Origin: Planctomycetota bacterium
GTDB taxonomy: Bacteria; Planctomycetota; PLA2; JAEUHO01
Length of the DNA: 64,000 nucleotides
Reading direction: 5' to 3'
Assembly: GCA_020631815.1 (NCBI GenBank)
Contig: JACKGW010000001.1
Location: 209,683-273,682 of the forward strand
Made by a program: the position numbers and the translations under genes. The notes beneath the pieces were generated by a model, which saw only the letters and a list, made by a program, of their open reading frames with translations, was not told where the DNA came from and did not search any database. How positions within the stretch are numbered: position 1 is the stretch's first letter; each line of letters starts with the position of its first letter. Below are positions 16,597 through 38,590 of this stretch, in pieces.

Positions 16597-16713
16597 GCTC
16601 GAGTCCGGATCCTCTGAGGTCAGGAGGCCGCCTCCGCCCCGGATTCTCGTCGTGCCTGTGGCTCGCTTCGGCCCCGGTGCCCTCGCGACGGAGTGTTTCC
16701 AGACAGACCCCAG
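16597..16713. repeat. Element E copy 1 (~115 nt), in the divergent intergenic region upstream of the SLC13 transporter
   Basis: Aligned against 38475-38590. A 55-nt core (ttctcgtcgtgcctgtggctcgcttcggccccggtgccctcgcgacggagtgtt) differs at one position. Confidence 0.8.
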
Positions 16714-16752
16714 GGGCCCTCGCATCTAAAGTCCGCGTCCGGGAGGCCGCGG

Positions 16753-18564
16753 ATGGACGGGCACGGCTGGGTGGCGATCGCGGTCCTCGTGGTCGCCACC
16801 GTGCTGTTCATCAAGAAGTGGCTGCCGGTGGGCGTCACGGCGCTGTCGATCCCCGTGGTGCTCCACGTGACGGGGGTGCTCCCGAAGGCCAGTGACGCGC
16901 TGCGTGGCTTCAGCAGCCCGGCCGCGGTGGCCATCGGGGCGGTGTTCGTGCTCGGCACGGGCCTGCGTGAGAGCGGCGTGGCCACGCTGCTGGCCCGCGG
17001 CATCCAGGCCTTGGGCGGGCGCAGCGAGGCGCGGCTCTGCCTCTTCGTGATGATCGCCACGGCGGCGCTGTCGGCGTTCATGAGCAACGCCGCCGTGGTG
17101 GCCATGCTGCTGCCCACCGTTCTCGTGCTGTCGCGGCGCTCGGGCGTGGCGGCCTCGCGGCTGCTCATGCCGCTGGCCTTCGCTGCCGTGCTGGGCGGCA
17201 CGATCACGATGGCCGGTACCGCCGGCAACATCCTGGTGGCCGACTACATCACGGGGCCCGAGGTGCCTGCGGGCATTCCGCCGCTCCAGCTGTTCGACTT
17301 CACGCCCATCGGTCTGGCCATCACGGCGGCGGGCATCGCCTTCGTGGTGCTGGTCGGGCGATGTCTGCTGCCGCGCAACCTCGCCGACGACCGGCGTCGC
17401 AAGCGCATGCCCGAGGACGTTGCGAAGAGCTTCAAGCTGTCCGAGTCGCTGCTGATGTTCGGCGTGCGCGAGGCCTCGCAGGCGGCGGGCCGCACGCTGG
17501 GCCAGCTCGACCTGCCAGGTCAGTACGGGATGAACCCGTTGATGGTGCGCCGTCCGGCACCCATGGGCGACAAGTGGATCCCGCCGGACGCGGGTGTGGT
17601 CCTGCAGCCCGGCGACCGGCTGTACGCGCAAGGGGCCGAATCGTCGGCATGGCTGCTGGCCGAGAGCGAGATGCTCCAGTTCGGCCTCGCTGGCCCGCGC
17701 GCGGTCGAGCGCATCCTCGGACGGGGCACGACGTTGGCCGAGGTCGCACTCCCGCCGCGCAGCCTCTATCTCGGCAAGACGCTCGAAGAGGAAGACTTCA
17801 CCGCGCGCTATGGCCTGCAGGTCTTGGCACTCTGGCGAGCCAACGGGGAGGAGATCGAGGAGCCCCTCGGCCACAGGCTGGACGTGGGTGACAACTTCCT
17901 CGTGTCGGGTACGGCCCGCGCCGTCCATCGCCTCGAGACGCAGGCCGACTTCACGGTGCTGACCGACCAGAGCCAGGTCGAGGACGTCACGCGCGCCCCG
18001 CTGGCCATCGGCATCCTCGTGGCGTGCTTGGTGCCGGTCGTGGCATTCAACATGCCGTTGGCCCTGGCAGCCCTCGGCGGTGCATTGCTGATGGTCGTGA
18101 CGGGATGTGTGACCAAGCCCGCCCTGCGACGGGCCGTCGACTGGAACGTGCTCGCCTTGATCGTGGGCACGCTGCCGCTGGGCTTGGCGCTCGAGATGCA
18201 TGGGATTGCCGACGTTGCCGCGAGTGCGGTTGTCGACGTGGGTACGTCCGCGTCATCCGTGGGCGTGATCGCGATCCTGTTCGCGCTGGCGGCGGTGCTC
18301 GCCACGCTCACCAGCAACGCGGCAGCTGCCCTGATCGTGGCGCCCGTGGCAGCCCGCGCCGCGGCCGTTGCCGGGCTGCACCCGACCACCGCCCTGCTGG
18401 CCGTGGCCTATGGGACGTCCTGCGCGTTCGTCCTGCCCTTTGCCCAGTGGAACCTGATGGTGGCGGTGCCCGGCGGCTACGGGAACCGCGACTACCTGAA
18501 GATGGGCAGCCTCGTCACGCTGGTCTACGCGATCGTGGCCATCGCCCTGCTCTCCCTGCGCTGA
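16753..18564 (+). CDS. SLC13/DASS-family anion transporter with two internal TrkA-C (RCK_C) domains
   Basis: ATG 16753 after GGGAGG. About 12 TM segments. Cytoplasmic TrkA-C-like inserts (LGQLDLPGQYGMNPLMVRR..; LAEVALPPRSLYLGKTLEEEDFTARYGLQVLALWR). Typical CitT/SLC13 C-terminal hairpins (SNAA motifs, two copies). Confidence 0.85.
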   Translation: MDGHGWVAIAVLVVATVLFIKKWLPVGVTALSIPVVLHVTGVLPKASDALRGFSSPAAVAIGAVFVLGTGLRESGVATLLARGIQALGGRSEARLCLFVMIATAALSAFMSNAAVVAMLLPTVLVLSRRSGVAASRLLMPLAFAAVLGGTITMAGTAGNILVADYITGPEVPAGIPPLQLFDFTPIGLAITAAGIAFVVLVGRCLLPRNLADDRRRKRMPEDVAKSFKLSESLLMFGVREASQAAGRTLGQLDLPGQYGMNPLMVRRPAPMGDKWIPPDAGVVLQPGDRLYAQGAESSAWLLAESEMLQFGLAGPRAVERILGRGTTLAEVALPPRSLYLGKTLEEEDFTARYGLQVLALWRANGEEIEEPLGHRLDVGDNFLVSGTARAVHRLETQADFTVLTDQSQVEDVTRAPLAIGILVACLVPVVAFNMPLALAALGGALLMVVTGCVTKPALRRAVDWNVLALIVGTLPLGLALEMHGIADVAASAVVDVGTSASSVGVIAILFALAAVLATLTSNAAAALIVAPVAARAAAVAGLHPTTALLAVAYGTSCAFVLPFAQWNLMVAVPGGYGNRDYLKMGSLVTLVYAIVAIALLSLR

Positions 18565-18686
18565 GGGGCCTCCCCGCGCCGCAGGCTCCGGTCCGCGGAC
18601 GGGGCAGGAGACCCGAGCGCCCGATCGCCGGGGGGCGACGCCCCGCGCACCGGGTACCTTGACTCGCCCGCTTTGGAGGACTCCCC

Positions 18687-19979
18687 ATGCGCGCCCTGCT
18701 CCTGATCGCCCTGGGTCTGGCCCTGGTCGCCCCCGCCGCCCTCGCCGAGGACCCGCCGACGTTCAGCGTCGAGACGCTTGCGCCGCAGGCGGACGACCTC
18801 CAGGACGGCTGGACGATGGGTTCCGGTGACGCCGCCGCGGACCAGCCGAGCGCCGACGCGATCATGGAGATCGCCAAGGCCGTGGGCCTGAGCGACCTCG
18901 AGGTCTATCCCGAGGCACGTCGCCTCACCGCCCCCGAAGGTCCCACGGTGGACGTCGCCTACATCGACGTCGACACGGACCCGGGCACGTTCCGCAAGGC
19001 GCTCGACGAAGCCGCCGCCGCCAAGGGTTGGGTCGTCCGCGAGGCGAGCACGCCCTACCGCCTGCTCGTCGTCGGCGGAACGGGCGCAGGGCAGGAAGCG
19101 GCCATCCGCAACCAGCTCGAGCATCTCGTCCGACGCTTCGTCGGCATGGCCGAGACGCGCCTCATGGCGCGCACCCGCCACGAGGACGAGCGTCTCGCTT
19201 CGGAGGCGGCTGCGCGCGACTTCCTCGAGCGCGGCAAGTCCCTCGGCGTGGACGCTTCGGCGCTCGACACGCTCGAGGCGTTCCTCCACTGGCGCGCGTG
19301 GGGTGCTGCCGACGGCAAGATCAAGACGGCCGAGGCCAAGCTCAAGAAGACGCCCGACGACGCCGAGTCGAAGAAGACGATCGAAGAGAACAAGCCCATC
19401 CGCGACAAGGAGAAGGACGCGTACATCGCGCTGGCCAAGAAGGCGTTCGCTCCGGATCGTCGCGTTCCCCCGACGGGTTGGCTGCCGGTCTCGGTTGCGG
19501 GTCGTTCGGGCGGCATGCTGCTCGAGAAGAAGGACAAGGCCCTGTTGCCCGAGGCCGTGCACCTGCTCGAGGTGGCGGTCGACGCCGAGACGCGCTCTCC
19601 CAACCCGACCCTGGCCTACGAGAACCGCTACAACCTGGCCTGCGCCTACGCCCTGCAGACGCGGATCGACGACGCGTTCGACATGCTCGAGAAGGCACTC
19701 GAGGCCGGCTCCACGCAGCCGCCCTTCCAGTTCGGCCCCTCGTTCCTGCACATGCGCGACAAGGACCCCGACATGGGCGTCCTGCGCAAGGACCCGCGCT
19801 GGGACCCGCTGATCGAGAAGTACTACTCGGACAAGATCAAGAAGTGGGAAGAGGCCCAGAAGAAGAAGGGCAACAACCCCCACGGCACCAACCCGCACGG
19901 TGACGACCCGAATGCGGGTGGCGATGACGACAAGGGTGGCGACGAGGACGGGGGTTCCGAGGACGAAGGCGGCGAGTAG
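18687..19979 (+). CDS. Secreted hypothetical protein with TPR-like C-terminal region and acidic/Gly-rich tail
   Basis: Signal peptide MRALLLIALGLALVAPAALA. C-terminal NLACAYALQTRIDDAFDMLEKALEAG (TPR-like). Acidic GDDDKGGDEDGGSEDEGGE tail. GGAGGA SD. Confidence 0.6.
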   Translation: MRALLLIALGLALVAPAALAEDPPTFSVETLAPQADDLQDGWTMGSGDAAADQPSADAIMEIAKAVGLSDLEVYPEARRLTAPEGPTVDVAYIDVDTDPGTFRKALDEAAAAKGWVVREASTPYRLLVVGGTGAGQEAAIRNQLEHLVRRFVGMAETRLMARTRHEDERLASEAAARDFLERGKSLGVDASALDTLEAFLHWRAWGAADGKIKTAEAKLKKTPDDAESKKTIEENKPIRDKEKDAYIALAKKAFAPDRRVPPTGWLPVSVAGRSGGMLLEKKDKALLPEAVHLLEVAVDAETRSPNPTLAYENRYNLACAYALQTRIDDAFDMLEKALEAGSTQPPFQFGPSFLHMRDKDPDMGVLRKDPRWDPLIEKYYSDKIKKWEEAQKKKGNNPHGTNPHGDDPNAGGDDDKGGDEDGGSEDEGGE

Positions 19980-19987
19980 CGCGCGGA

Positions 19988-20120
19988 GGTGTCTGAACCC
20001 GTGCCACGGCGCATGGCGCCAGTGGAACGGGGTCTGACACCGAAGTGCGCCTTCCGCTTGGGTTCAGACCCCGTGCCCGCGGCGTCGCCAAGGCGACGCC
20101 GCATCACGGGATCAGACCCC
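19988..20120. repeat. Two tandem GTCTGA/TCAGAC-box elements in the convergent intergenic space
   Basis: 19988-20041 ggtgtctgaaccc-[hairpin]-ggggtctgacacc. 20059-20120 gggttcagacccc-[gcggcgtcgcc aa ggcgacgccgc perfect 11-bp hairpin]-gggatcagacccc. Confidence 0.75.
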
Positions 20121-21302
20121 GCGCTCCACCAGCGCTGCGAGGCCGAGGCCGCCGGAGATGCAGAGCGTGGCGACGCCGCGCTTCGCGCCGCGCTCCTTCA
20201 TGCTGTGCAGCAGCGTGACCAGGATGCGGCAGCCTGTGGCGCCGATCGGGTGGCCCAGCGCGATGCTGCCGCCGTCGACGTTCATGCGATCCAGGTCGAT
20301 GCCCAGCTCGCGGTTGCAGGCCAGGACCTGCGCCGCGAAGGCCTCGTTCAGCTCCCACAGGTCGATGTCGTCGATCGACAGACCCGTCTTCTCGAGCAGC
20401 TTGCGAACCGCGGGCACCGGCCCCAGGCCCATCTCGCGCGGCTCGACGCCGGCCTCGGCGTAGGCCACCAGACGGGCCTCCGGGGTCACACCGTGCTGCT
20501 TCACGGCGTCGTCGCCGAGCACGACGATGGCGGCCGCGCCGTCCGTGATGCCGCTGCTGTTGCCGGCGTGCACGGTGCCGTTCTTGCGGAACACCGGGGG
20601 CAGCTTCGCGATCTGCTCGATCGTCACGTTGTCGCGCGCGTGCTCGTCGGCGGTGAAGTCGTACGTGCCCTTCTTGCGGTCCGTGATCTGGATCGCGACC
20701 TTCTCGGCGTCGAAGCGCCCGCGCTCGCGCGCGGCCTGGGCGCGCTGCTGGCTGGAGAGCGCGTAGCGGTCCTGCTCCTCGCGCGGGATGCCGTAGCGGT
20801 CCACGAGGTTCTCGGCCGTCTCGCCCATCAGCTGGTCGGCGAGCTTGCAGTGGAAGCCGTCCTGGTACATCCCGTCCACGATCTGGTCGTGACCGAGGCG
20901 GTAGCCCCAGCGCGCGCGCGGCAAGAAGTAGGGCGTGTTCGACATGCTCTCCATGCCGCCCGCGAGAACGATCTCCGCTTGGCCAAGCCGGATGGCGTCG
21001 GCACCGAGCAGCACGCTCTTCAGCCCGCTGCCGCAGGCCATGTTCACGGTGTAGGCGGGACTCTCGACGGGCACGCCCGCGCGCACGGCGACCTGCCGAC
21101 CGGTGCTGGGGCCCTGTCCCGCCTGGCGACCATGGCCGAAGATCGACTGGTCCACGGCCGAGGCCTCGACGCCTGCGCGGCTCAGCGCACCGCGCGCCGC
21201 GGCCTCGCCGAGATCCGGGGCTGACAGCGGGGCCAGCGTGCCGCCGAAGCGGCCGATCGGGGTGCGTGCCGAGCCGGCCAGCCAGATCGCCGTGTCGCGC
21301 AT
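20112..21302 (-). CDS. Acetyl-CoA C-acetyltransferase (thiolase II)
   Basis: 396 aa from ATG 21302 (GGAGAC SD). Active-site motifs [11 protein letters not shown] (Cys), [17 protein letters not shown] (His), CISGGLGLA (Cys). The upstream R-rich extension to 21431 is rejected. Confidence 0.9.
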
Positions 21303-21560
21303 GGGGGTCTCCACGCCCGGTCCCCGCCATGAGCCCCATGGCGAGGAGGGGGGCGTGAGGGTAGCCCACGACCTGCAGGGCGCTGGCCTCGTGGCGCGGT
21401 GCCGCCGCGTGCACCGCCGACCGAGGGCCACCGGGGAAGGTGGCGGCCCCCGCGAGCGTGGGTACCCTCCCGAGCGAGACCTCGCCGCTCGCGCCTTCGC
21501 GTCGCGCGCCCGTCGCAGGGCCCTCGCGCCAGGGCCGTGCCGGTCTCGCGGGAGGGCGAG

Positions 21561-22841
21561 ATGGCCGCGAAGAAGAAGACCGCGAAGAAGAAGGCCGCGG
21601 CCAAGAAGGCCCCCGCGAAGAAGGCCCCGGCGAAGAAGGCGGCCAAGAAGACCGCTGCCAAGAAGGCCCCGGCCAAGAAGGCCGCCGCCCCGAAGAAGAA
21701 GGCCGCGAAGAAGGCCGCCAAGAAGACGCCGGCGACGCAGAAGAAGGCGCCCGCCAAGGCCGCGGCCCCCGCCGAGGCCCCGGAGGAGGTCGTCGAGACC
21801 CGGGCCGCTTCCGAGGCCGCGGCGGCCCCGAAGGCGCGCTCCGCGGCCCCGGCCACGCCCGCTGCGGCCCCGCCGCCCAAGAAGAAGGCCCCCGCCCCGG
21901 CCGCCGACGACGAGCCGAAGCCCGCTGCAGCGGAGGACGCCGAGGACGACGTCGAGGCCGAGCCCGAGCTGCCGCCGATCCCGAAGATGCCGGCGCGGCG
22001 CAGTGACGGACGCATCTCGCTGACCTTCTCGGCCTCAGGCGACCAGGCGTTCCTCGTCTACGCGCTGACGGCGGGCAAGGTCGACACGGAGGACCGCGAG
22101 TACCACGTCGAGCGCGTCGAGCTCCACGAGTCCGAGGCGGCCGCCGAGTCCGGCAAGCCGGACGTCGTCACGTTCTCCGCGGGTCACTACGGCGCCGTCC
22201 AGGACCGCTACCTCCTCCTCTCGTGCGGTGGCACGTACGGAGACAGCCGCGGCCCGGTGCTCGTCGCGCGCTCGCCCATCCGGGCCGGCGAGGTGCGGGG
22301 CCTGCGCGTCGCCGTTCCGTCGCTCGATCACCCGGCGGCGCTTGCCCTGCAGCTCTGGCTGCCTCAGCTCGAGCCCGAGCTCGTCCCGATGCCGGTGCCG
22401 CACATCTCGCTGATGGTGCGCGCCGATCGCGTTCGCGCCGGTGTGTTGGTCAACGAGGACCAAGTCGCCTACATCCAGCACAACCTCGTCCGCGTCGTGG
22501 ACCTGGGGCATTGGTGGGGCGAGCGCACCGAGGGCCTGCCCATGCCGAACACGCTCATGGGCGTGCGACGCGACATCGACGCCGACCTGCGGGCGAAGAT
22601 CGCGTTGGACCTCAAGCGCTCGATCGCCTACGCCTTGGGTCACCGCGAGGACGCGCTGGACTTTGCCATGGCGCATGCGGGCAAGCACGAGCGGTCCACC
22701 GTGGACTCGCTCGTGGGTCGCTACGTGAACGACCTCACGCTGGACGCCGGCGAGCGGGGCCGCCAAGCCCTGTCGATGCTGTTCCGCGAGGCCAACCGCC
22801 ACAAGAAGCTCGAGACGGTTCCGCACCTGTTCTTCTCGTAG
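21561..22841 (+). CDS. Fusion protein: histone H1-like Lys/Ala-rich N-terminal tail (~170 aa) + MqnA/MqnD/SBP-like periplasmic-binding-fold domain
   Basis: ATG 21561 after GGGAGGG. The (A/P)KKA repeats are encoded exclusively by AAG, so they are genuinely coding. C-terminal domain (ISLTFSASGDQAF...VAVPSLDHPAALALQLWLP...) resembles the MqnA/MqnD family. Domain call is moderate. Confidence 0.6.
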   Translation: MAAKKKTAKKKAAAKKAPAKKAPAKKAAKKTAAKKAPAKKAAAPKKKAAKKAAKKTPATQKKAPAKAAAPAEAPEEVVETRAASEAAAAPKARSAAPATPAAAPPPKKKAPAPAADDEPKPAAAEDAEDDVEAEPELPPIPKMPARRSDGRISLTFSASGDQAFLVYALTAGKVDTEDREYHVERVELHESEAAAESGKPDVVTFSAGHYGAVQDRYLLLSCGGTYGDSRGPVLVARSPIRAGEVRGLRVAVPSLDHPAALALQLWLPQLEPELVPMPVPHISLMVRADRVRAGVLVNEDQVAYIQHNLVRVVDLGHWWGERTEGLPMPNTLMGVRRDIDADLRAKIALDLKRSIAYALGHREDALDFAMAHAGKHERSTVDSLVGRYVNDLTLDAGERGRQALSMLFREANRHKKLETVPHLFFS

Positions 22842-22858
22842 GCGTGCGGCGTTCGCTT

Positions 22859-22919
22859 GGGATCAGACCCCGTGCCCGCGGCGTCGCCAGGGCGACACCG
22901 CATCACGGGATCAGACCCC
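22859..22919. repeat. GTCTGA/TCAGAC-box element, near-identical to 20059-20120
   Basis: gggatcagacccc-gtgcccgcggcgtcgccagggcgacaccgcatcac-gggatcagacccc. 59 of 61 nt identical to the 20059 copy. Confidence 0.8.
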
Positions 22920-22947
22920 GCGCGGGCGCTTCCGTACGTGGTGCCGC

Positions 22948-23502: not shown

Positions 23503-23596
23503 CGCACGGCCTATCGACCGTCCCTGCGAGACAGTGGAGGGCTTTCTCGCAGACAAGGGCCGTGACGCCTCGGCGAGAGGGGACGAGGCCCCTCGC

Positions 23597-24373: not shown

Positions 24374-24432
24374 CAGCGCATGTAGCGAGGCGACTCGTTC
24401 AGCCCCGATGACCTTGCGGCACGAACCGGCCT

Positions 24433-24526
24433 GTCAGGGCGACGGTAGCGGGCCACCATCGGCGACGACTCGTGGTCTGTTCACTCGAGGAGCCGATGGT
24501 GGCGCGGGACCGAGCATCTGACGGGC
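24433..24526 (+). repeat. Element C (ccaccatcggc...gccgatggtgg hairpin + GGGACCGAGCATCTGRCG tail), copy 1
   Basis: gtcagggcgacggtagcgg-gccaccatcggcgacgactcgtggtctgttcactcgaggagccgatggtggc-gcgggaccgagcatctgacgggc. 11-bp stem, 27-nt loop. Confidence 0.75.
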
Positions 24527-24563
24527 AGTACCTTCCCACGCCAGCAGACGCGCGCACCCAGCG

Positions 24564-25766
<1,203 letters not shown>

Positions 25767-25884
25767 GGGTCCTCCTCCAGGCCGGGCGCGTCTGCCCCCG
25801 ACGAGCGCGCCACGGTACCCGTGGGCCTTCTTCTCGGCCACGCCGGGCTGCCAGGGATGCGTGCACCCCCTCGCGTGCCTGGGT

Positions 25885-25946
25885 GCGGCTCGTCAGATGC
25901 TCGGTCCCGCACCCGCATCCGCTCCTCGAGTGCAGGTGCACCTGCC
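25885..25946 (-). repeat. Element C partial copy (reverse orientation), ending in a perfect 14-bp palindrome gcaggtgcacctgc
   Basis: ggctcgtcagatgctcggtcccgcacccgcatccgctcctcgagtg is about 85% identical to 39793-39845. Palindrome at 25932-25945. Confidence 0.65.
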
Positions 25947-25963
25947 GACTCTTTCCGCGCTCA

Positions 25964-26038
25964 CGCGCGGACTAGGCGCTCGGGCCGTGGCCCTCGCGGC
26001 AGAGGGGCTATTCCGTACCCCCTCTGCACTCCTCACGG
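25964..26038. repeat. Element D copy 1 (75 nt; contains the gcagaggggctattccgtaccccctctgc hairpin)
   Basis: cgcgcggactaggcgctcgggccgtggccctcgcggcagaggggctattccgtaccccctctgcactcctcacgg. Confidence 0.8.
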
Positions 26039-26192
26039 CCCGTGACGACCCGATGCGCGGCGGACGCAAGCCGATCCGAACAGTGTTCGGGCCCAGTTGC
26101 TCGCGCAGCTCCAGCCGCTGGTGAGGGGGTACGGCGCGGGGCCGCCGCACAGCGCCCCGTGTTCCCCAGGCTCCGGGTACCTTCCGCAGGTG

Positions 26193-28641: not shown

Positions 28642-28662
28642 CGCGGCTCGCGACGGGGCGGC

Positions 28663-28902: not shown

Positions 28903-29118
28903 GGCGTGTCGTCCTCCGCGGGCGGCGGGTCACCGTACCCCGGCGGCCGGTCCTCTCCAGCCCGGGCCCAGCCGCTGTCCGGCGGGCCACGAACCTCGGC
29001 CTTGGTGGCCCAACGCGTCCTTCGACGTCGATGCGGTCATCCTTCGGCCGCCTCGAGACGTGCGCGACCGCCGGGGGGACGTGCGGCCCAGCCGCAGGTT
29101 CCTCCTGGGCGGGTCGGG

Positions 29119-29217
29119 TCGTCAGGGCGAAGGCAGCGCGCCACCATCGGCGACGACTCGTGGTCTGTTCACTCGAGGAGCCGATGGTGGTGTGCGGCCG
29201 AGCATCTGGCGAGCCGC
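29119..29217 (+). repeat. Element C, copy 2 (same orientation)
   Basis: About 90% identical to 24433-24526 over ~90 nt, including the hairpin and the ccgagcatctggcgagccg tail. Confidence 0.8.
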
Positions 29218-29241
29218 ACCTACGCACCCCGGCGCACGCCC

Positions 29242-30264
29242 CTACCTGCCCAGGACCTCGCAGAACAAGGCGCGCTGGATGTGGAGGCGGTTGGCCGCCT
29301 GTTCCAGGATGAGGCTGCCCGGGGCGTCCACGACGGCGTCGTCGGCCTCCACGTTGCGGCGGATGGGCATGGCGTGCATGAACCGCGCGTCCTGTGTGCG
29401 GGCCATGGCCGTGGCATCGACGCGCCAGTCCACGTGACGCTGGCGGAGTGCCGCCTCCGCCTCGGGATCGTGGTTGTGGTGGATGCTGCCCCACGGGGCC
29501 GCGTAGACGATCTCGGCGTCGGCCAGGCCGTCGCGCATGTCGTGGACGAAGCGCAAGCTGCCCCCGCTCTCGCGGGCACCGTGCTCGAGGTTGGCGCGCA
29601 CGCCCGGGTCGAGCGGGAAGCCCTCCGGATGGGCGACCGTGAGGTCCATGCCGAGCTTCGTGGCCATGGTCGCCACGCCCTGCGGGACGGCCAGCGATCG
29701 GGCCTTGGGATGCCACGCCCAGGTCAGCGTGATCTTGCGGCCGCGGACGTCGCCCAACGCCTCGACGAGCGTCATGGCATCGCCCCAGGCCTGGCACGGG
29801 TGGTCCAGCACGCTCTCCATGTTGAAGATCGGGACCTGCGCGTGCTTCTGGAACGACACGATCACCATGTCGCGCCGCTCTTGCGCCCAGTCCCGGCGGC
29901 GGGCCAAGGAGCGGATCGCCAGCACGTCGGCGTGTTCCGAGAGCACGGCTGCGGCGTCGCGCACGTGTTCGTCCGCAGGTCCGTCCATCGGTACGCCCTC
30001 GCGGAACTCCAGCGGCCACAGGTCGCGACCGGCCGCCATGTCCACGACGGCTCCGCCCAGGGTGGAGAACGCGATGTGGAAGGACGTCCGCGTGCGCAGC
30101 GAGGGGTCGAAGAACACCATGGCCAGCGCACGACCCTGCAGGCGCGGCTCGGGCGGCGCGGCCTTCATGGCGCGGGCCCGCTCCACGACGTGCAGCAGCT
30201 CCTCGGCACGGAAGGTGTCCAGCGTGACCACGTCACGCCCGCGAATCGAGACGGCAGCACTCAT
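29242..30264 (-). CDS. Ornithine/aspartate carbamoyltransferase-family enzyme (possibly N-acyl-ornithine carbamoyltransferase, ArgF'-like)
   Basis: 341 aa from ATG 30264. Carbamoyl-phosphate motif SLRTRTSF (STRTR). HPCQ (HPxQ) and MHAMP (HxLP) motifs present. Weak SD. The upstream extension to 30456 is rejected. Confidence 0.8.
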   Translation of the reverse strand: MSAAVSIRGRDVVTLDTFRAEELLHVVERARAMKAAPPEPRLQGRALAMVFFDPSLRTRTSFHIAFSTLGGAVVDMAAGRDLWPLEFREGVPMDGPADEHVRDAAAVLSEHADVLAIRSLARRRDWAQERRDMVIVSFQKHAQVPIFNMESVLDHPCQAWGDAMTLVEALGDVRGRKITLTWAWHPKARSLAVPQGVATMATKLGMDLTVAHPEGFPLDPGVRANLEHGARESGGSLRFVHDMRDGLADAEIVYAAPWGSIHHNHDPEAEAALRQRHVDWRVDATAMARTQDARFMHAMPIRRNVEADDAVVDAPGSLILEQAANRLHIQRALFCEVLGR

Positions 30265-30572
30265 GCCTGCGGAGGCTACCCGCGAGGGGCCGTGCCGCGA
30301 CGCGCCGAACCGGCGTGCTCCGGCTCGGTCGGATTGCGCGCGACCCCCCCGCCCATGCATGATGGAGGGGTCGTGCGACGCGGGCTTCGCCGGGCCCGCC
30401 CGTGCGGTCGGGTTCGTTTGCGTCTGCGCCCACTGGGTCGCGGCGTCTTCGGTCACCCCGCCGTCCGGGCCCCGCGAGCTTTTCGTGGGGCCTGGGGAGG
30501 GCGAGCGACCGGGGCATCGCCATCCCGGTTTCCGCGCCGACGTGCGCTCCCGGCTCGCGGACGGGAGGGCGC

Positions 30573-31133: not shown

Positions 31134-31178
31134 ACAGATGTCGCCTCTGGCACGCGCCAGGGGACCAAGGAGAACGCC

Positions 31179-32822: not shown

Positions 32823-32834
32823 TCGACCCGCGGC

Positions 32835-32894
32835 TGTGTCAGAACCCTTGCTGGGGAGCCGCGCAGCGGCGACGCGGGCAAGGTGTCTGACACG
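32835..32894. repeat. GTCTGA/TCAGAC-box element (inverted-box variant)
   Basis: tgtgtcagaaccc-[hairpin-like 34 nt]-ggtgtctgacacg. An additional lone box ggggttcagacacc at 33052-33065. Confidence 0.6.
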
Positions 32895-32979
32895 CCGGGG
32901 GCGCTTCCGATCGCCAGCGAACGCCGCACTGCGCCAACTGACCGAGGGCTGGGTGCACGGTGGGTCGTGCCGCGCTCCC

Positions 32980-33054
32980 GCGCGGAGTCGGCGCTCGGGC
33001 AGACGCCCTCGCGGCAGAGGGGCTATTCCGTACCCCCTCTGCACTCCTCACGGG
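32980..33054. repeat. Element D copy 2
   Basis: cgcgcggagtcggcgctcgggcagacgccctcgcggcagaggggctattccgtaccccctctgcactcctcacgg. About 67/75 identical to copy 1. The 52-nt hairpin-containing 3' part is identical. Confidence 0.8.
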
Positions 33055-33056
33055 GT

Positions 33057-34181
33057 TCAGACACCTCCGCGCGCCGGCGCGAACACAGCCGGCGCGGGAG
33101 CGCCACCGAGCGCGGCCTCGGCCACAGCGGCTCCGAGGCCGAGGCCCCAGCCCATGCCGTGTCCCATGAGACCCGCGAGCACGTAGAGTCCGTCGGCGCC
33201 GGGCCAGGCGCCGGCGAGCGGCAGGCCGTCGGGCGTGAACGCCATCGTCCCGGCCCAGCGCGCAATGACCTTGCGCCGCTGCGCATGGGGAAACCAGCGT
33301 GCGAGCAGCCGCTCCAGCGCTCGTTGCACCGCGGGGCCGGGCGTCTCGTCCGTGGTGCGTTCTTCATCGCCCCCCTCGTCACGCTGACCGCCGAGCAGCA
33401 CCGTTCCCGTCGACAGCACGCGGAGGTAGTCGTGCCCGCCGCGGGCGTACACGGGACGGGGTGCGCGCGGTGTCGGCTTGACGCGCGCGGCCAGCATCTG
33501 GGCGCGCCACGCCGTGAGCCGCAGGTCGGCAGTTCCGGCCGGCGCGAGCGCGCCTGACGCGTGCGAGGCCGTGACGACGACGATCGCCGGCTCGATCACG
33601 CGCTCACCCACCACGACCCGCCAGCGCGTGCCGTCGCGCTCCGGACGTGTCACGCGCACACCCTCGCTCAGGGCGGCACCTGCGCGGCGCGCTTCGGCGA
33701 CTACCGCGTCGAGGAGGTGGAGGGGGTCGACCGCGCCATCGCCGTCGTCGACGAGGCCGCCGAGCCAGGGCCCACCCCGCCAGGGCGCGGGCAAGCGATC
33801 GGCGGCGAGCCATGTGAGGCCCAAGGCGTCTGCCGTGGCCTCGAGGTCGGCGGCCTCGTCGGGATCCACCGCCAAGCGCAAGCTGCCGGAGGGGACCCAG
33901 CCGATGTCGTGGTGACGGGCCAGATCGCGGACCGCCTCGCGCGTGGCGAGCCCTGCCGCACGAAGCGCATCCGCCACGTCCCGCCCCTGGGACTGGGCGA
34001 CGCGCGCGTAGGGGTCGGCGCCGTCGGCCAAGATGAAGCCTGCGTTGCGTCCCGTCGCGCCCTCACCGGCGCGGCGCACGTCGACCCAGGCGACCGTGGC
34101 CCCGCGTTGCGCGGCCGCGCGCGCCACAGCGGCGCCGGCGATGCCGGCGCCCAGGACCAGCACGTCCGGGCGTGCGGGCAC
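33057..34181 (-). CDS. FAD-dependent oxidoreductase (DAO family, glycine/D-amino-acid oxidase-like)
   Basis: N-terminal Rossmann dinucleotide motif DVLVLGAGIAGAAVARAAAQRGATVAWVD. C-terminal DAO-type motif GLYVLAGLMGHGMGWG. Start set at GTG 34181 (uncertain; no in-frame ATG nearby). The remainder of ORF 33057..36653 is rejected. Confidence 0.75.
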   Translation of the reverse strand: MPARPDVLVLGAGIAGAAVARAAAQRGATVAWVDVRRAGEGATGRNAGFILADGADPYARVAQSQGRDVADALRAAGLATREAVRDLARHHDIGWVPSGSLRLAVDPDEAADLEATADALGLTWLAADRLPAPWRGGPWLGGLVDDGDGAVDPLHLLDAVVAEARRAGAALSEGVRVTRPERDGTRWRVVVGERVIEPAIVVVTASHASGALAPAGTADLRLTAWRAQMLAARVKPTPRAPRPVYARGGHDYLRVLSTGTVLLGGQRDEGGDEERTTDETPGPAVQRALERLLARWFPHAQRRKVIARWAGTMAFTPDGLPLAGAWPGADGLYVLAGLMGHGMGWGLGLGAAVAEAALGGAPAPAVFAPARGGV

Positions 34182-34331
34182 GTCGTCGCGCCAGGGGTCG
34201 CGCTCGCGACGCCGCTCCAGCCACCATGAGGTGGTGGGGACGGGGTCGGGAGCAGGATCGACAGGCTCGGAAACGGCGCACCTCCGGGGCCGGGATCGTA
34301 GTCCGGAGGGCGGCGTACCCTGGGCCCCCCG

Positions 34332-35900
34332 ATGGCTGACGCCCGCACCCGCTCCGACGACCCTCCCTCGCTCCGCGTGGTCCGCGGCGAGCTGGAGCTC
34401 GCACTCCGCGTCACCGACCCGGACGTCGTCGCCGAGCTCGAGTCGGTCCCGGAAGGCGCCGCGCGCGAGGCGCACGCGCTGAAGGCACTGCGCATCGGTG
34501 TTACGGCGCTGCAGGGCGCCCGGGGGCAGGTCGACGCCGCCGTCGTCCGCAAGGAGGGCGAGCGTCTCGTCGCGGAGCTTCGACGGTCGCTCGACGCCCA
34601 CCGCGAGGGGCTGGGCGGTCGCCTGGAGACCACGCTCAAGGAGTGGTTCGACCCGCAGAGCGGCAAGCTGCCCGAGCGCATCCGCGGCCTCGTCAAGAAG
34701 GACGGCGAGCTCGAGACCGTGCTGCAGCGCGCCGTCGGCAGCGACGGCAGCGCGCTGGTCGCCACGTTGCGCACGCACGTGGGCCCCGAGAGCCCGCTCA
34801 TGAAGGTCCTGAGCCCGTCCCAGAGCGAGGGGTTGCTTCATTCCCTGGGCCAGGCCGTGGAGAAGCAGCTCGCCACGCAGCGCGAGCACATCCTCCAGCA
34901 GTTCAGCCTCGACCGCAGCGACAGCGCGCTGTCGCGTCTGGTCCAAGAGCTGGAGAAGAAGCACGGCGACCTCACCACCGAGCTCAAGGGCCGTATCGAC
35001 CACGTCGTTCGCGAGTTCTCGATGGACGAGGAAGGCAGCGCGCTCAAGCGGCTCGTGGACCGCGTGGACCAGGCGCAGAAGCGCATCACCCGCGAGTTCA
35101 CGCTCGACGAAGAAGCCTCGGCACTCGGGAACCTCCGCAAGCAGCTGCTGGACGTGCTGCACGAGCACGAGAAGCGCAACGTGGCGTTCCAGCAGATGGT
35201 CGTGGAACAGCTCGGCCGCATGCAGGGGGCCAAGGAAGAGGAGCAGCGCAGCACGCGCCACGGTCTCACCTTCGAGCAGGCCCTCTTCGAGCGCGTCCAG
35301 GCCTACGCCCAGGGAGCTGGCGACGTGGCCTCGTTTACCGGCAACGAGACGGGCCTCGTACGCAATGACAAGAAGGGCGACGTCGTAATCCAGCTGGGCC
35401 CCGACGCGGTCGCGGCGGGCGCGCGCATCGTGCTCGAAGCCAAGCAGGATCAGTCCTACTCCATGCGCCACGCGGCCGAGGAGATCGCCGCGGCCCGCAA
35501 CAACCGCGGGGCCGAGGTGGGGGTCTTCGTCTTCTCCAAGCGCTCGGCGCCCGAGGGTCTCAAGGTCCTCCAGCGCATGGGCTCGGACGTGTTCGTCGTA
35601 TGGGACGCCGAGGACGAGAGCAGCGACACCGCTCTCGAAGCCGCGCTGCTCCTGGCGAAGGCCCTCGTCACGCGCGCCGCCACGGAGAAAGACGAGGAAG
35701 CCGTCGACCCGGAGCGCTTCGAGCGCGCCATCCTCGACATCGAGAAGCACGCCAACAACCTCGACGACGTCACGAAGGCCGCCGAGACCATTCGCAGCGG
35801 CGCCGACCGCATCCTCACGCGCGTGCGCATCGACCAAGACGCGTTCCGTCGCCAGATCGAGGAGCTGCGCCGGCTGCTGGACGCACTCCGCGACGCGTAG
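34332..35900 (+). CDS. Coiled-coil protein with C-terminal PD-(D/E)xK-like domain (DUF2130/RmuC-like; hypothetical)
   Basis: 522 aa. Strong GC3 with AAG lysines. About 330 aa predicted coiled coil, then ...GLTFEQALFERV...GDVVIQLGPD...ARIVLEAKQDQSY...AEVGVFVFS, which fits an E...D...ExK restriction-endonuclease-fold signature. Family assignment is inference from memory of DUF2130/RmuC. Confidence 0.65.
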   Translation: MADARTRSDDPPSLRVVRGELELALRVTDPDVVAELESVPEGAAREAHALKALRIGVTALQGARGQVDAAVVRKEGERLVAELRRSLDAHREGLGGRLETTLKEWFDPQSGKLPERIRGLVKKDGELETVLQRAVGSDGSALVATLRTHVGPESPLMKVLSPSQSEGLLHSLGQAVEKQLATQREHILQQFSLDRSDSALSRLVQELEKKHGDLTTELKGRIDHVVREFSMDEEGSALKRLVDRVDQAQKRITREFTLDEEASALGNLRKQLLDVLHEHEKRNVAFQQMVVEQLGRMQGAKEEEQRSTRHGLTFEQALFERVQAYAQGAGDVASFTGNETGLVRNDKKGDVVIQLGPDAVAAGARIVLEAKQDQSYSMRHAAEEIAAARNNRGAEVGVFVFSKRSAPEGLKVLQRMGSDVFVVWDAEDESSDTALEAALLLAKALVTRAATEKDEEAVDPERFERAILDIEKHANNLDDVTKAAETIRSGADRILTRVRIDQDAFRRQIEELRRLLDALRDA

Positions 35901-35915
35901 ATCGAGGGAGGCGCC

Positions 35916-36521
35916 GTGACCAAGAACCGCGTCGAGGCATTCAGCGACGGCGTCTTGGCCATCGTCATCACGATCATGGTGTTGGAGATGAAGGCGCCGC
36001 CGCACGCGGACCGGATCCCCGACCTGCTCCCCGTAGCGCCCGCGTTCTTGAGCTACATCCTCAGCTTCCTGTACCTCGGCATCTACTGGAACAACCACCA
36101 TCACCTCCTGCATGCGGCGCCCCGCGTGACGCCTGCCGTGATGTGGACGAACCTGCACCTGCTCTTTTGGCTCTCGCTCGTGCCCTTCGTGACCGCGTGG
36201 ATGGGGGAGAACCACTTCGCGCCGCAACCCATGGCGCTCTACGGCGCCGTCCTCCTGATGGCCGCGGTCGCCTACTGGGCGCTGCAACGGGCCATCGTGT
36301 CGATCGAAGGCTGCGACTCGGAACTGGCCCAGGCCCTCGGGCCCGACTGGAAGGGCAAGGTGTCGACCTTCGCCTATGCCGTCGCGATTCCCGGAGCCCT
36401 GCTCTCGCCCTGGATCGCGGGCATCGCCTACGTCGGGGTGGCCATCGTGTGGCTCGTTCCCGATCGCCGCCTCGCACGCGTGATCGAACGGCGATCGAGC
36501 GCGCCGGACGCGGGCGCATGA
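35916..36521 (+). CDS. DUF1211 / TMEM175-family membrane protein (putative K+ channel-like)
   Basis: GTG 35916, 4 nt after GAGGGAGG and 16 nt after the upstream stop. Signature RVEAFSDGVLAIVITIMVLE (DUF1211 helix-1 motif). Four to six TM helices. Confidence 0.75.
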   Translation: MTKNRVEAFSDGVLAIVITIMVLEMKAPPHADRIPDLLPVAPAFLSYILSFLYLGIYWNNHHHLLHAAPRVTPAVMWTNLHLLFWLSLVPFVTAWMGENHFAPQPMALYGAVLLMAAVAYWALQRAIVSIEGCDSELAQALGPDWKGKVSTFAYAVAIPGALLSPWIAGIAYVGVAIVWLVPDRRLARVIERRSSAPDAGA

Positions 36522-37324
36522 GCCACATCGTCCTCGTCCACTGGAAGCCGGCAGAGGCCGAGCCCACGCAGCGCGGGCTGGTCGACCAGGGTCATCGCCT
36601 CGAGCTGATCCGACCCGAGGGCGGCAAGGGGCTTGCACGCTACCGGGCGACACCTCCTGACGCGTTCGTGATCGATCTGTCGCGCCTGCCCAGCCACGGG
36701 CGGGAGGTGGCGGTGTACCTGCGCCGGCAGAAGGGCACGCGTGACGTGCCGCTTGTCTTCCTGGCCGGGGATCCGGCGAAGGTAGAGCGGTTGCGCGAGG
36801 CCCTGCCGGACGCGCAGTACGTGCGCACGTGGCGCGGTGTCGGTGGGGCCATCGGGCGCGCGAAGACGTCGCCGCCGCGCGCGGCCGTCGTGCCGACCAG
36901 CATCACCGGCTACTCGGGCACGCCGCTCGTCAAGAAGCTGGGCATCAAGGCGGACTCACGTGTGGTCTTGGTGGGCGCGCCCAAGGACATCCCGGTGCTG
37001 CTCGCCGATCGACCCCCAGGGAGCACGCTCGTCCAAGCAGGCCGCGGGCCCGGCGATCTCGTGCTGGTCTTCGCCACGACGCGCGCCGAGCTGACCAAGC
37101 GCTTGCCTGGCGCGCTGGCCCGTGTCGACGACCCGGGGCGCCTGTGGATCGCGTGGCCCAAGAAGACGTCGGGTCAGGCCAAGGACCTGTCCGAGCCCGG
37201 CGTTCGCGAGGCGGGACTCGCGGCGGGCTGGGTCGACTTCAAGATCTGCGCCATCGACGCCACGTGGTCGGGCCTCTGCTTCGCTCGGCCCCAGCACACC
37301 AAGCGCCAGCGCAGCGGGCGCTGA
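36518..37324 (+). CDS. Pseudo-receiver-like N-terminal domain + DUF3052 domain protein
   Basis: ATGA overlap with the DUF1211 gene stop. C-terminal GYSGTPLVKKLGIKADSRVVLVGAP...DLVLVFATTRAELTKRLP...GRLWIAWPKK...DFKICAIDATWSGLCF closely matches the actinobacterial DUF3052 consensus. N-terminus has REC-like topology (..DAFVIDLSRLP...PLVFLAG) but lacks the acidic pocket. Confidence 0.6.
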   Translation: MSHIVLVHWKPAEAEPTQRGLVDQGHRLELIRPEGGKGLARYRATPPDAFVIDLSRLPSHGREVAVYLRRQKGTRDVPLVFLAGDPAKVERLREALPDAQYVRTWRGVGGAIGRAKTSPPRAAVVPTSITGYSGTPLVKKLGIKADSRVVLVGAPKDIPVLLADRPPGSTLVQAGRGPGDLVLVFATTRAELTKRLPGALARVDDPGRLWIAWPKKTSGQAKDLSEPGVREAGLAAGWVDFKICAIDATWSGLCFARPQHTKRQRSGR

Positions 37325-37337
37325 TCGCGCGCGACCC

Positions 37338-38336
37338 TCACGCGCGGCGGTCGTGGATCCAGGCGAACGGCGTGGGCCTGTGGCGACGCTTGGCCTCCGC
37401 GTCGGCTTGGCGGCGATACCGGGCCGGCATCTCGCAGAGCTCGTCCTGCAGGCGCGCACCGTCGGGTCCAAGGCCCGTGAGGTGGCCTACGCGCGCCTCG
37501 GCGAAGAACCCCTCGAGGTTGTCGGCGTAGTCGTGGAGCGAGTAGATGCCGAGGTGCGTCCCGACCGCAGAGAAGCGGCGGAACAGCGAGACGTCGCCGT
37601 CTCCGGCCATGAGTCGCGCGGGCATGGCGACATGGCCGACCACGTGGCGCAGGGCTTCCAGGGCACCGTCGGGATCGCGCTCGAGCACGCCCAGCAGCAC
37701 GCCGCGGTAGGCGCGCTCATGGCGTGCCTCGTCGGCCGCAACCAGGCCGCACATGCGGCGGAGACGGTCCGCGCCGGCCCGGCGCACGACACGCCCGAGC
37801 TGGTTCCACGAGGTCTTGGTGGCGTGCTCCTGGATCGAGGCATAGGCCAGTCCCTTGTAGGGGTCGCCGTCCGCGCCCGTGTCGAAGCCGTTGCGCAGCA
37901 GGTGCTGGATGGTGCGCTCGACCTCGCGCATGGCCACGCGCCCGCCGAGCAGCAGGTAGGCGCGCGTGACGTCGCCGTGGCGCTTCTCTTCGGCCGTCCA
38001 GGCACGGCTCCAGCAGGCCCAGGCATGGCGCTCGGTGCCCGTGGCGTCGGTCATGCCACCGAACCGGTTGAGCGCCGTCTGGTAGGAGGGCAGGGCCTCC
38101 TCGGTCACCACGTTGCCGACGAGGACGACGAGCATGTCGTCCTCCAGGCGCTCGGCCTCCGCCCGCAGCTCGTCCAGCTCCTCCCGCCACGTGGGGCCCG
38201 CGAAGTCGGGCAGGAAGTCGGACGGCTGCCAGCAGGCCTCGACCTCGGGGAACGTCGCCAGCTGCTCCTCGACGGTCGGGAGCACGTCCGCCATCACGCG
38301 CAGGCGCTCGGCGTCCTGGCGGAGGAGGAGATGCAT
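37338..38336 (-). CDS. Soluble acyl-ACP desaturase (diiron, ferritin-like fold)
   Basis: 332 aa from ATG 38336 (GGAGAC SD). Diiron ligands EEKRHG (EENRHG-type) and DEARHE. Overall similarity to stearoyl-ACP Δ9 desaturase / DesA-type. Upstream extension rejected. Confidence 0.85.
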   Translation of the reverse strand: MHLLLRQDAERLRVMADVLPTVEEQLATFPEVEACWQPSDFLPDFAGPTWREELDELRAEAERLEDDMLVVLVGNVVTEEALPSYQTALNRFGGMTDATGTERHAWACWSRAWTAEEKRHGDVTRAYLLLGGRVAMREVERTIQHLLRNGFDTGADGDPYKGLAYASIQEHATKTSWNQLGRVVRRAGADRLRRMCGLVAADEARHERAYRGVLLGVLERDPDGALEALRHVVGHVAMPARLMAGDGDVSLFRRFSAVGTHLGIYSLHDYADNLEGFFAEARVGHLTGLGPDGARLQDELCEMPARYRRQADAEAKRRHRPTPFAWIHDRRA

Positions 38337-38474
38337 GGGCTGGGTCTCCACGGCCGGCCAGCCGACCCGGGTCGAGAGCCACCGAGGAGACGAGGACGGG
38401 TTCCGCCTGGAGCTCCGGGTCTGTCTGAGAACACGTCCTGCTGCGGCCACCGTGTCTCTCGCTGCGCCCGCCCC

Positions 38475-38590
38475 AACTCGAATCCGGGTCCTTTGGCGGT
38501 CAGGGGACCGCCTCCGGCCCGGCTTCTCGTCGTGCCTGTGGCTCGCTTCGGCCCCGGTGTCCTCGCGACGGAGTGTTCTCAGACGCACCC
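38475..38590. repeat. Element E copy 2, between the divergent desaturase genes
   Basis: About 85-88% identity to copy 1 over ~115 nt. Same orientation. Confidence 0.8.

Follow-up and report, generated by a model that had tools for sequence, protein, structure and literature searches.

Correia and Nezha elements duplicate TA at their target, and ERIC and Correia elements influence mRNA stability or supply promoters. These families, Correia/NEMIS in Neisseria, ERIC/IRU in enterobacteria and Nezha in cyanobacteria, are bacterial MITEs, as is RUP in Streptococcus pneumoniae; MITEs are defined by a length of 70-300 bp, terminal repeats of 15-30 bp and the lack of any coding capacity (PMC3733652). 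REP units, in comparison, are 20-40 bp long and carry a GTAG or CGTC tag, and in a REPIN they form an inverted doublet (PMC3733652). We analysed a 64,000-nt window from a Planctomycetota genome in which a preliminary description had reported a ~115-nt element, present twice and both times in a divergent promoter region, and had proposed that it was a functional unit. We call it element E. It is probably a non-coding, non-autonomous foldback of ~177 bp, that is, a MITE-like mobile repeat, and not a dedicated regulator of divergent promoters. Members of its family occur across a clade of uncultured Planctomycetota with high G+C.

The unit is ~177-185 nt long. Copy A lies at 16536-16720 (~180 nt; covariance model score 171.8 bits), and copy B, the best preserved, at 38414-38590 (177 nt; 193 bits). 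The preliminary description had placed both on the same strand at these sites, and both were confirmed, on the plus strand. Gene calls also agreed with it on the neighbours: copy A has on its left the minus-strand gene of a Laminin_G_3 protein (14776-16452) and on its right the plus-strand gene of a CitMHS/TrkA_C transporter (16753-18564), and copy B is likewise flanked by minus-strand FA_desaturase_2 (37338-38336) and plus-strand FA_desaturase (38749-39762) genes. Only ~36 nt separate the right end of copy A from the transporter’s ribosome-binding region, and copy A must therefore be in the promoter or 5' leader of that gene. The length of ~115 nt did not stand. Self-BLAST pairs 16543-16717 with 38422-38597 (177 nt, 80%), so that the homology runs ~55 nt further left and only the right two-thirds had been seen.

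The reported identity of 85-88% compares with 86.5% over 126 nt in our alignment of copies A and B. The reported 55-nt core with one difference corresponds to a highly conserved 54-nt right-arm core, at 16644-16697 in copy A and 38524-38577 in copy B (both plus strand), in which one base differs. It includes 36 nt that match exactly (16644-16679 and 38524-38559), where 0 matches are expected by chance. Outside the element the identity of the flanks falls to background (8/18 and 9/25). As the homology between the copies stops at its ends, element E is a discrete unit.

A third copy, copy C (12464-12580, plus strand; repeat family D2), is a degenerate relic in which the apex and the right arm remain (nhmmer E = 2.9e-6). 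It shows 67-72% identity (70-72% by BLAST), is identical in a strain contig (L051), and occupies the 134 nt between two stop codons, those of a HEAT-repeat gene (plus strand, ends 12458) and a metallophosphoesterase gene (minus strand, ends 12593). The earlier account of two copies, both in divergent promoter regions, holds for A and B but is incomplete, because copy C sits between convergent genes.

The three copies fall within ~79 kb of the source genome (the window plus L048 and L050), and the 8.6 kb and 6.4 kb of added source-genome sequence contained no further copy. These ~79 kb are also the extent to which the refuting condition of the preliminary description, dozens of copies without positional bias relative to genes, was applied. 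Two more were found in ~330 kb from relatives. L021, a distant Planctomycetota MAG whose desaturase is 65% identical, has a full copy of ~184 nt between convergent genes; this copy shows 74-77% identity, a level at which contamination from the same organism is unlikely. L025, another Planctomycetota MAG, has a relic upstream of FA_desaturase_2, oriented relative to that gene as copy B is. All copies are intergenic, in unrelated contexts. Two of the five, copy C and the one in L021, are in spacers between convergent genes, sites that have no promoter. The pattern CGCTNCGGCCCCGGTNNNCTCGCGANGG, whose strictness excludes the L021 subtype, gave 0 matches in genome contigs, a collection that does not contain this species, and in metagenome contigs it returned nothing but copies A and B from the same organism. 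A pattern that also covered the L021 subtype gave 0 matches in viral contigs, and blastn with element E found no match in plasmids.

The closest relative compared, L013, has the same divergent desaturase pair (94% and 87% identical), and both flanks can be aligned. It lacks exactly the block 38414-38590, with a single G in its place between conserved flanks, and the spacer between the desaturase start codons is 237 nt, versus 413 nt in the source genome. L013 thus keeps the pair and the flanking spacer without the element, which shows that element E is dispensable for the desaturase promoter region. With no outgroup that shares the gene arrangement, the absence from L013 may instead reflect a precise loss. 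No copy lies upstream of the transporter orthologues (76-80% identical), where a different upstream neighbour precludes a base-for-base comparison of the site, and the other loci compared contain no orthologues of the genes flanking the L021 copy.

These comparisons bear on whether any mobility is needed. Copies A and B are on one strand and 22 kb apart, as they might be after a local segmental duplication of intergenic DNA, and gene conversion could account for their near-identical right part. That the pair arose in either way, with no mobility, is nevertheless very hard to credit: the flanks of A and B show no relationship even next to the terminal repeats, a full copy stands at an unrelated locus in the distant L021 genome, and the terminal repeats coincide with the block that L013 lacks.

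The whole unit is a single long imperfect palindrome, whose halves pair over their full length. Its terminal inverted repeats are ~18-25 bp long, with the consensus roughly (CTAG)GGYYTGTCTGARAAC. In copy B the left repeat, GGGTCTGTCTGAGAACAC (38417-38434, plus strand), and the right repeat, whose reverse complement is GGGTGCGTCTGAGAACAC (38573-38590, minus strand), match at 16/18 positions and share a 12-nt core, GTCTGAGAACAC, exactly (12/12; 38423-38434 on the plus strand, 38573-38584 on the minus strand). The ‘CAGAC box’ with which the elements had been said to end is there, as part of this right terminal repeat. The cores of copy A have decayed, with two mismatches to the consensus at 16544-16555 (plus strand) and one at 16693-16704 (minus strand). 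The termini of the L021 copy read CTAGGGCTTGTCTGAAAA versus CTAGGCTGTGTCTGAAAA, with arms of ~18 nt (11/14 plus AAAA), and copy C and the L025 copy are without terminal inverted repeats. At the exact centre of the palindrome, copy B has an apex hairpin, GGCGGTC-AGGG-GACCGCC (38495-38512, plus strand; the centre of 38417-38590 is 38503.5). This apex, as GGTC-AGGR-GRCC at the exact centre, is the feature common to copies A and B. The palindromic motif earlier ascribed to both copies, GGAGGCCGCCTCC, is in copy A only, and copy B has GGGGACCGCCTCC at that place.

The junctions of copy B read ...CACCC/TAGG on the right, where TAGG is also found at the L013 empty site, and GCTCC/GGGT on the left, with neither TA nor TAG repeated. 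The right end of copies A and C reads CCAG. The L021 copy has (C)TA(G) at both sides, but as this is palindromic it could belong to the terminal repeat. Comparing the copy B junctions with the L013 empty site thus gives no clear target-site duplication, which counts against the MITE-like reading.

At least four further families of small intergenic repeats occur in the window, and two of them differ between strains that are otherwise 99.7-99.9% identical. This polymorphism between near-identical strains suggests that the population has active small mobile repeats. Other short palindromic repeats in the window carry a G(G/T)GTCTGA tag (14 matches versus 5.4 expected), and the ends of element E carry the related GGGTCTGTCTGA.

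The arms of element E have changed together. Across copies 90.8% of cells pair, as against 38-45% when the partners are slid, and 16 pairs have changed on both sides, as against at most four. Over the whole-length palindrome the compensated pairs number 13-16. Such a foldback would also be expected if the element moved in a hairpin-dependent manner, like REPIN/RAYT or IS200/IS605-type elements, or served as the substrate of a site-specific recombinase, instead of being a MITE of a DDE transposase: the arms would co-vary along their whole length because a folded single strand is recognised. The lack of a visible target-site duplication fits such a mechanism, as do the wealth of tagged palindromic repeats in the window and the related ends of element E, and tagged palindromic repeats are known from Planctomycetes (PMC3733652). 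We nonetheless think it quite improbable. At 177 nt the element is far larger than REP units or typical REPIN doublets, its ends have no GTAG or CGTC tag, it has true terminal inverted repeats, unlike the ends of IS200/IS605-type elements, and no tyrosine (Y1) transposase gene was seen in ~79 kb of the source genome.

We found little sign that element E acts as an RNA or encodes a protein. With Rfam 15 at gathering thresholds the only match in the whole window was a tRNA at 59673-59745, and at E <= 10 copies A and B, for which an Rfam check had been proposed, and the L021 copy gave only chance-level matches (E >= 1.9). The predicted RNA fold of copy B has -87.5 kcal/mol (z = -2.3), and copy A alone folds no better than shuffled sequence. 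In the 131-nt segments taken from the preliminary description neither strand folds better than shuffled sequence, and the foldback appears in the full-length unit only. It is the same on both strands (-67.6 and -74.2 kcal/mol), and the counts of G-U versus A-C pairs (plus strand 15:5, minus strand 17:10) show no clear bias. As the foldback is equally good on both strands, element E is a DNA palindrome and not a strand-specific RNA. Its reading frames are shifted by indels between copies, six-frame translations of copies A and B matched no protein at E <= 0.001 among 5.8 billion sequences, and the MAG annotations call no gene within it. A simple scan found neither a sigma-70-type promoter nor an intrinsic terminator. 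A sigma-54 promoter was considered and rejected, as the spacing does not fit.

The two arms are unevenly conserved. Between copies A and B, 68/75 positions of the right half are identical (91%), compared with 55/82 of the left half (67%; Fisher p = 0.0004), which bears out the earlier remark that the core is more conserved than the periphery. The right arm itself is identical at 42/43 positions, and 33/43 positions of it and 18/21 of the right terminal repeat are identical to the L021 copy (77-86%). In the L025 relic conservation is seen in the left arm and apex instead of the right arm. Judged from these alignments, such inequality, even across distant genomes, is not what the neutral decay of a selfish repeat would predict, and it is the single feature of element E worth following up.

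One explanation is that element E is, or has turned into, a functional module, either cis-regulatory or an RNA, which a mobile element has spread or which was domesticated from one. Its right arm (CTTCTCGTCGTGCCTGTGGCTCGCTTCGGCC...CTCGCGACGGAGTGTT) would then be a regulator site, an outward promoter or a structured leader that co-regulates the transporter and the desaturases. The 91% identity of the right arm and its retention in a genome as distant as L021 point this way. Copies A and B are also co-oriented, with the conserved arm towards the downstream plus-strand gene, copy A is close enough to the transporter’s ribosome-binding site to be in its promoter or leader, and the L025 relic has the orientation of copy B upstream of FA_desaturase_2. 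We consider a regulatory module unlikely, however, as the genes around copy C and the L021 copy are convergent and turn their 3' ends towards them, L013 has kept its desaturase pair without the element, and the transporter orthologues have no copy upstream. Neither the fold nor the G-U versus A-C counts show a strand bias, Rfam gave no match, the scan found no sigma-70-type promoter or intrinsic terminator, and L025 conserves the left arm and apex instead of the right arm. Several of these results, the lack of an Rfam match or strand preference, the two convergent sites among five and the L013 empty site, also tell against the regulatory role that had been tied to divergent promoters. What is upheld of the proposed functional unit is a discrete unit with a conserved core; a small RNA, a riboswitch-like leader and a regulator-binding site are not supported.

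The MITE-like reading could be combined with function if the conserved right arm (~55-75 nt), nearly identical in A and B and 77-86% identical in a genome with proteins at only ~65% identity, were cargo on a mobile foldback element, either a portable promoter/operator or a small structured RNA. We regard this as quite improbable, although, if true, element E would be a mobile regulatory cassette that rewires transporter and fatty-acid desaturase genes in a Planctomycetota lineage. A further point against a MITE-like repeat is that two of the five copies (copy B and the L025 relic) lie immediately upstream of FA_desaturase_2 in the same relative orientation. This coincidence may be an ascertainment effect, because the loci from relatives were all picked around the FA_desaturase_2 gene.

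The MITE-like reading draws on the terminal inverted repeats, the empty site in L013, the sharp ends, the unrelated contexts of the copies, the foldback with its co-varying arms, the lack of coding capacity and of an Rfam match, the other repeat families in the window and the agreement with the published MITE definition. If element E is a MITE-like repeat, its copies would have been inserted by a transposase that is supplied in trans and recognises the terminal repeats. Copy B would be a fairly intact insertion into the control region common to both desaturase genes, copy A an older copy, with decayed ends, directly before the transporter gene, and copy C a relic. Any effects on neighbouring genes would be by-products of insertion, through a hairpin in a 5' or 3' UTR, the displacement of upstream promoter elements or the formation of a hybrid promoter. 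Across ~0.66 Mb of sequence, Planctomycetota loci showed no inverted pair of the terminal motif 0.1-4 kb apart other than element E itself, and neither an autonomous element nor a transposase with matching ends was found, which counts against this reading. The small number of copies seen, three in ~79 kb of the source genome and two in ~330 kb from relatives, counts against it too.

Being best read as a MITE-like intergenic repeat, element E is fairly ordinary. If this reading is right, it defines an undescribed MITE-like family, and points to several sister families, within a Planctomycetota lineage that is uncultured and comes from wastewater. Its value is then mainly for annotation, and conserved intergenic blocks in this genome should not readily be taken for regulators. 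Elements of this kind mark recent genome change, break metagenome assemblies and can alter the expression of neighbouring genes, which here are an SLC13-type transporter and a fatty-acid desaturase pair.

Element E resembles riboswitches, leader RNAs and small RNAs in its intergenic position, its length, within ~100-200 nt, its conserved core and its predicted helices, and in that copy A stands immediately upstream of a gene. It differs from them in that Rfam gives no match, the structure is not specific to one strand and its position is not consistently tied to a gene class. Copies also occur between convergent genes, and the closest relative lacks the element in its orthologous promoter region. 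Integron attC sites are 57-141 bp long, have RYYYAAC and GTTRRRY boxes and form cassette arrays beside an integrase. They are imperfect palindromes that follow the 3' ends of genes and are recognised in folded, single-stranded form, and element E is likewise imperfectly palindromic. We rejected an attC reading, as the ends GTCTGAGAACAC and GTGTTCTCAGAC do not fit the boxes (GAG before AAC, CTC after GTT), neither an array nor an integrase is present, the neighbours are ordinary chromosomal genes and two of the copies, A and B, stand upstream of genes.

Like REP and REPIN sequences, element E is palindromic, intergenic and hairpin-forming, with compensatory changes between its arms. Unlike them it consists of one 177-nt foldback that has terminal inverted repeats, its termini begin GGGTCTGTCTGA... 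and not with GTAG or CGTC, and no RAYT gene was found in ~79 kb of the source genome. It has no detectable sequence similarity to Correia, ERIC, RUP or Nezha, and unlike Correia and Nezha no clear target-site duplication. It also departs from known MITE families in its unequally conserved arms, its few copies (three in ~79 kb) and its host, an uncultured Planctomycetota lineage. In the traits that define bacterial MITEs, however, it is alike. The block absent from L013 and the alignment of A and B (177 nt each) and the ~184-nt L021 copy are all within ~70-300 bp, copy B and the ~18-nt arms of the L021 copy have terminal inverted repeats within ~15-30 bp, and there is no coding capacity. As bacterial MITEs do, element E lies between genes, near gene starts or between convergent genes, it could form a long hairpin if transcribed, and it is dispersed, with presence or absence at orthologous sites, as three copies in the window, a copy in L021, a relic in L025 and an empty site in L013.

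The preliminary description placed a ~115-nt element, E, on the + strand at 16597-16713 and 38475-38590, and both copies are there, flanked by the genes it named, in agreement with the MAG gene calls. Aligning these segments gave 86% identity, with an exact 36-nt stretch (16644-16679 = 38524-38559) that had zero matches in any shuffle of the window, inside a core of 55 nt that indeed contains a single difference (16644-16697 vs 38524-38577). The repeat is real but was drawn too short: self-BLAST (16543-16717 vs 38422-38597, 80% identity) makes the unit 177 nt, and beyond these limits identity falls to background (8/18 positions on the left, 9/25 on the right). Copy A (16536-16720) has the gene for a Laminin_G_3 protein (14776-16452, minus strand) on its left and that for a CitMHS/TrkA_C transporter (16753-18564, plus) on its right. 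Copy B (38414-38590) separates a soluble-type FA_desaturase_2 gene (37338-38336, minus) from a membrane FA_desaturase gene (38749-39762, plus).

E has terminal repeats with the motif GGGYYTGTCTGARAAC. In copy B, GTCTGAGAACAC occurs without mismatch at 38423-38434 (+) and 38573-38584 (-), and the terminal arms, GGGTCTGTCTGAGAACAC and GGGTGCGTCTGAGAACAC, match at 16 of 18 positions; at the same positions copy A differs from the consensus at 2 bases on the left and 1 on the right. The CAGAC box reported at the end of the element exists, but as part of the right terminal inverted repeat. RNAalifold folded the three full copies into one hairpin that spans the whole unit, from its ends to an apex at the centre, with 58 pairs on the + strand (13 with compensatory changes) and 65 on the - strand (15 compensated, at slightly better energy). 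Under this structure 90.8% of cells paired, against 38-45% when partners were slid by 1-3 columns, and 16 pairs had changed on both sides, against at most 4 when slid, figures that with three sequences are indicative only. The counts of G-U against A-C mismatches (15:5 on the plus strand, 17:10 on the minus) show no convincing strand preference. As both strands fold, E is a DNA palindrome, and it could take this form as a transcript of either strand or as single-stranded DNA. Full copies folded better than shuffled sequences (z = -2.3 for copy B, z = -4.1 for the copy in the distant Planctomycetota MAG L021, JARGNS010000012.1). Copy A at full length folded no better than shuffled sequence, which fits an older, decayed insertion.

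The closest available relative, L013 (JBFWRP010000029.1), has the same divergent desaturase pair, 94% and 87% identical to the window's. Its spacer can be aligned on both sides of copy B, and one base stands for window 38414-38590: the junction reads ...GGAAGC-G-TAGGCC... in L013 and ...GGAGC[177 nt]TAGGCG... in the window. With 237 nt between its two start codons, L013 is 176 nt shorter here than the window (413 nt), and both limits of the missing block coincide with the inverted repeats. Either E was inserted in the window or it was precisely lost from L013. No target duplication is evident at copy B, where TAGG on the right side is part of the empty site and the left junction is TCC. The L021 copy is flanked by CTAG, which is palindromic and hence ambiguous as a target duplication. 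A TA or CTAG target of the IS5-like or IS630-like kind is no more than a lead; no autonomous partner element was found within the 0.66 Mb of sequence examined.

A repeat search of the window found a third, degenerate copy, C, at about 12464-12580 (BLAST identity 70-72%; nhmmer E = 2.9e-6). It occupies the 134-nt spacer separating the stop codons of two convergent genes, a HEAT-repeat gene (plus, ending at 12458) and a metallophosphoesterase gene (minus, ending at 12593), where no promoter is expected. A full-length copy in L021 (1468-1654; nhmmer E = 5.7e-48; covariance model 186.6 bits), with ends CTAGGGCTTGTCTGAAAA... and ...TTTTCAGACACAGCCTAG, also lies between convergent genes, unrelated to those near copies A to C and ~6 kb from a desaturase only 65% identical to the window's. 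The association with divergent promoters proposed earlier reflects the chance landing of two copies.

The locus L025, from a distant Planctomycetia MAG, carries a relic of E on its minus strand (845-994; 20.9 bits, E = 0.026 in 391 kb) that lacks terminal repeats. The relic precedes an FA_desaturase_2 gene by ~130 nt and is oriented relative to it as copy B is to its own, which may hint at an old association with the gene or be due to coincidence or sampling bias. Two of the five E copies are just upstream of FA_desaturase_2 in the same orientation, for which the chance is ~0.08, a rough estimate and not significant, and the relatives' loci were all fetched around that gene. Three copies were seen in ~79 kb of this genome and two in ~330 kb from relatives, with none in the 8.6 kb and 6.4 kb of this genome added to the window. 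Every relative that the desaturase search recovered is a Planctomycetota MAG. Proteins of the window have exact matches in GCA_020638895.1 (contig JACKHQ010000004.1), GCA_041398635.1 and several metagenome assemblies. A pattern matching all three window copies had no match in the species-representative genome collection, so the species is absent from it.

The two halves of E are unevenly conserved. Between copies A and B, 68 of 75 right-half positions are identical against 55 of 82 on the left (p = 0.0004), and comparison with the L021 copy gives 33/43 for the right arm and 18/21 for the right terminal repeat. Asymmetric transposase binding, gene conversion or functional cargo could explain the better-kept right arm. 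The L025 relic keeps the left arm and apex instead, a pattern that argues against a single functional right-arm module. A functional role for the conserved arm, as mobile regulatory cargo, is improbable. The suggestion of an RNA element found no backing in Rfam 15, where neither copies A and B nor the L021 copy had a match, whether at gathering thresholds or with E <= 10, and simple scans found no promoter or terminator in E. The original observation is confirmed and extended, and its functional interpretation only partly supported.

Some influence of E on its neighbours is nevertheless likely. Copy A ends ~36 nt before the GGGAGG ribosome-binding region of the transporter gene. This short stretch is the sole upstream part that aligns with the orthologue in the relative's locus L043 (80% identical, without E), so the promoter or 5' leader of the transporter must include E. 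Copy B divides the 237-nt control region shared by the desaturases into 80-nt and 159-nt parts, both conserved with L013.

At least four other families of small intergenic repeats are present in the window. The motif G(G/T)(G/T)TCTGA has 14 matches there against 5.4 expected, and clusters in intergenic repeats (for example at 3288, 3331, 19989, 20030, 20064, 20112, 22863, 22911, 32883, 33057, 49000 and 49042). A G(G/T)GTCTGA tag is common to several of these families and resembles the terminus of E, whose ends carry the related GGGTCTGTCTGA; it may be a shared recognition signal for one mobilising enzyme. Two families differ among strains otherwise 99.7-99.9% identical. Small mobile-type repeats are apparently a general and active feature of this genome, which raises the prior for reading E as a MITE, a miniature, non-autonomous, transposon-like repeat.

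A ~134-nt intergenic family containing GGGACCGAGCATCTGGCG (24433-24551, 29114-29247, 39761-39894 in reverse, and 25875-25932; 85-93% identity) has copies at gene ends, one just after the membrane desaturase gene. An 84-nt pair lies at 25955-26038 and 32970-33053 (93% identity). Strain contigs L007 (5199-5347) and L010 (3299-3475) contain, at window position 39838/39880, an additional block with 97% identity to window 25880-26057, so that a small repeat is polymorphic for insertion between strains. The 80-nt repeat at 20045-20124 and 22844-22923 (92.5% identity), both times between convergent genes, has two GGG(A/T)TCAGACCCC boxes around a GC hairpin and so looks like a repeat of terminator type; the E covariance model matches it weakly (15.5 bits, E = 0.37). 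A self-palindromic ~195-nt repeat has copies 45 kb apart (3288-3482 and 48998-49192), and in strain contig L051 (374-547), 99.93% identical elsewhere, a related repeat, in another variant, takes the place of window 3311-3543. In L043, two direct copies of CCCTCCTGGGGTCAGNCCNACCGAC lie in the spacer in front of the transporter orthologue (9830-9900); this is a further short repeat, with a box of the GGGGTCAGAC type.

The transporter directly follows a GDPD gene in the relatives' loci L043 (9828-10001) and L047 (9836-10001), whose transporters are 76-80% identical to that of the window. The window has between these genes a ~9.2-kb block (about 7385-16536) encoding a histidine kinase, a response regulator, the HEAT protein, the metallophosphoesterase, a hypothetical protein and the Laminin_G_3 protein; the block contains copy C and ends on the right at copy A. 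The metagenome contig L009 (1301-4643) carries an identical membrane desaturase and copy B, and departs from the window at 39894, within a repeat, with different downstream genes (DUF2207, LemA), reflecting either rearrangement at the repeat or chimeric assembly. Within coding sequence, ~12 tandem imperfect 15-nt units (21543-21779) specify a Lys/Ala/Pro-rich (AKKAA-type) tail resembling that of a histone-H1-like DNA-binding protein.

Several known classes were compared with E. Coding sequence is ruled out: the copies differ by frame-shifting indels, and six-frame translations, searched as one concatenated query, had no match in a large protein database. attC sites have characteristic boxes at their ends; these do not fit the ends of E, ruling out that class. 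REPs and REPINs are tagged units of 20-40 bp (PMC3733652), an architecture that E lacks, and they too are ruled out. A bacterial MITE is, by the working definition, a sequence of 70-300 bp with 15-30 bp terminal repeats and no coding capacity (PMC3733652). E has the size and the terminal inverted repeats, is non-coding, is dispersed between genes and has a precise empty site, and on these grounds we read it as probably a new, MITE-like family of foldback repeats, which would be moved in trans by a transposase.
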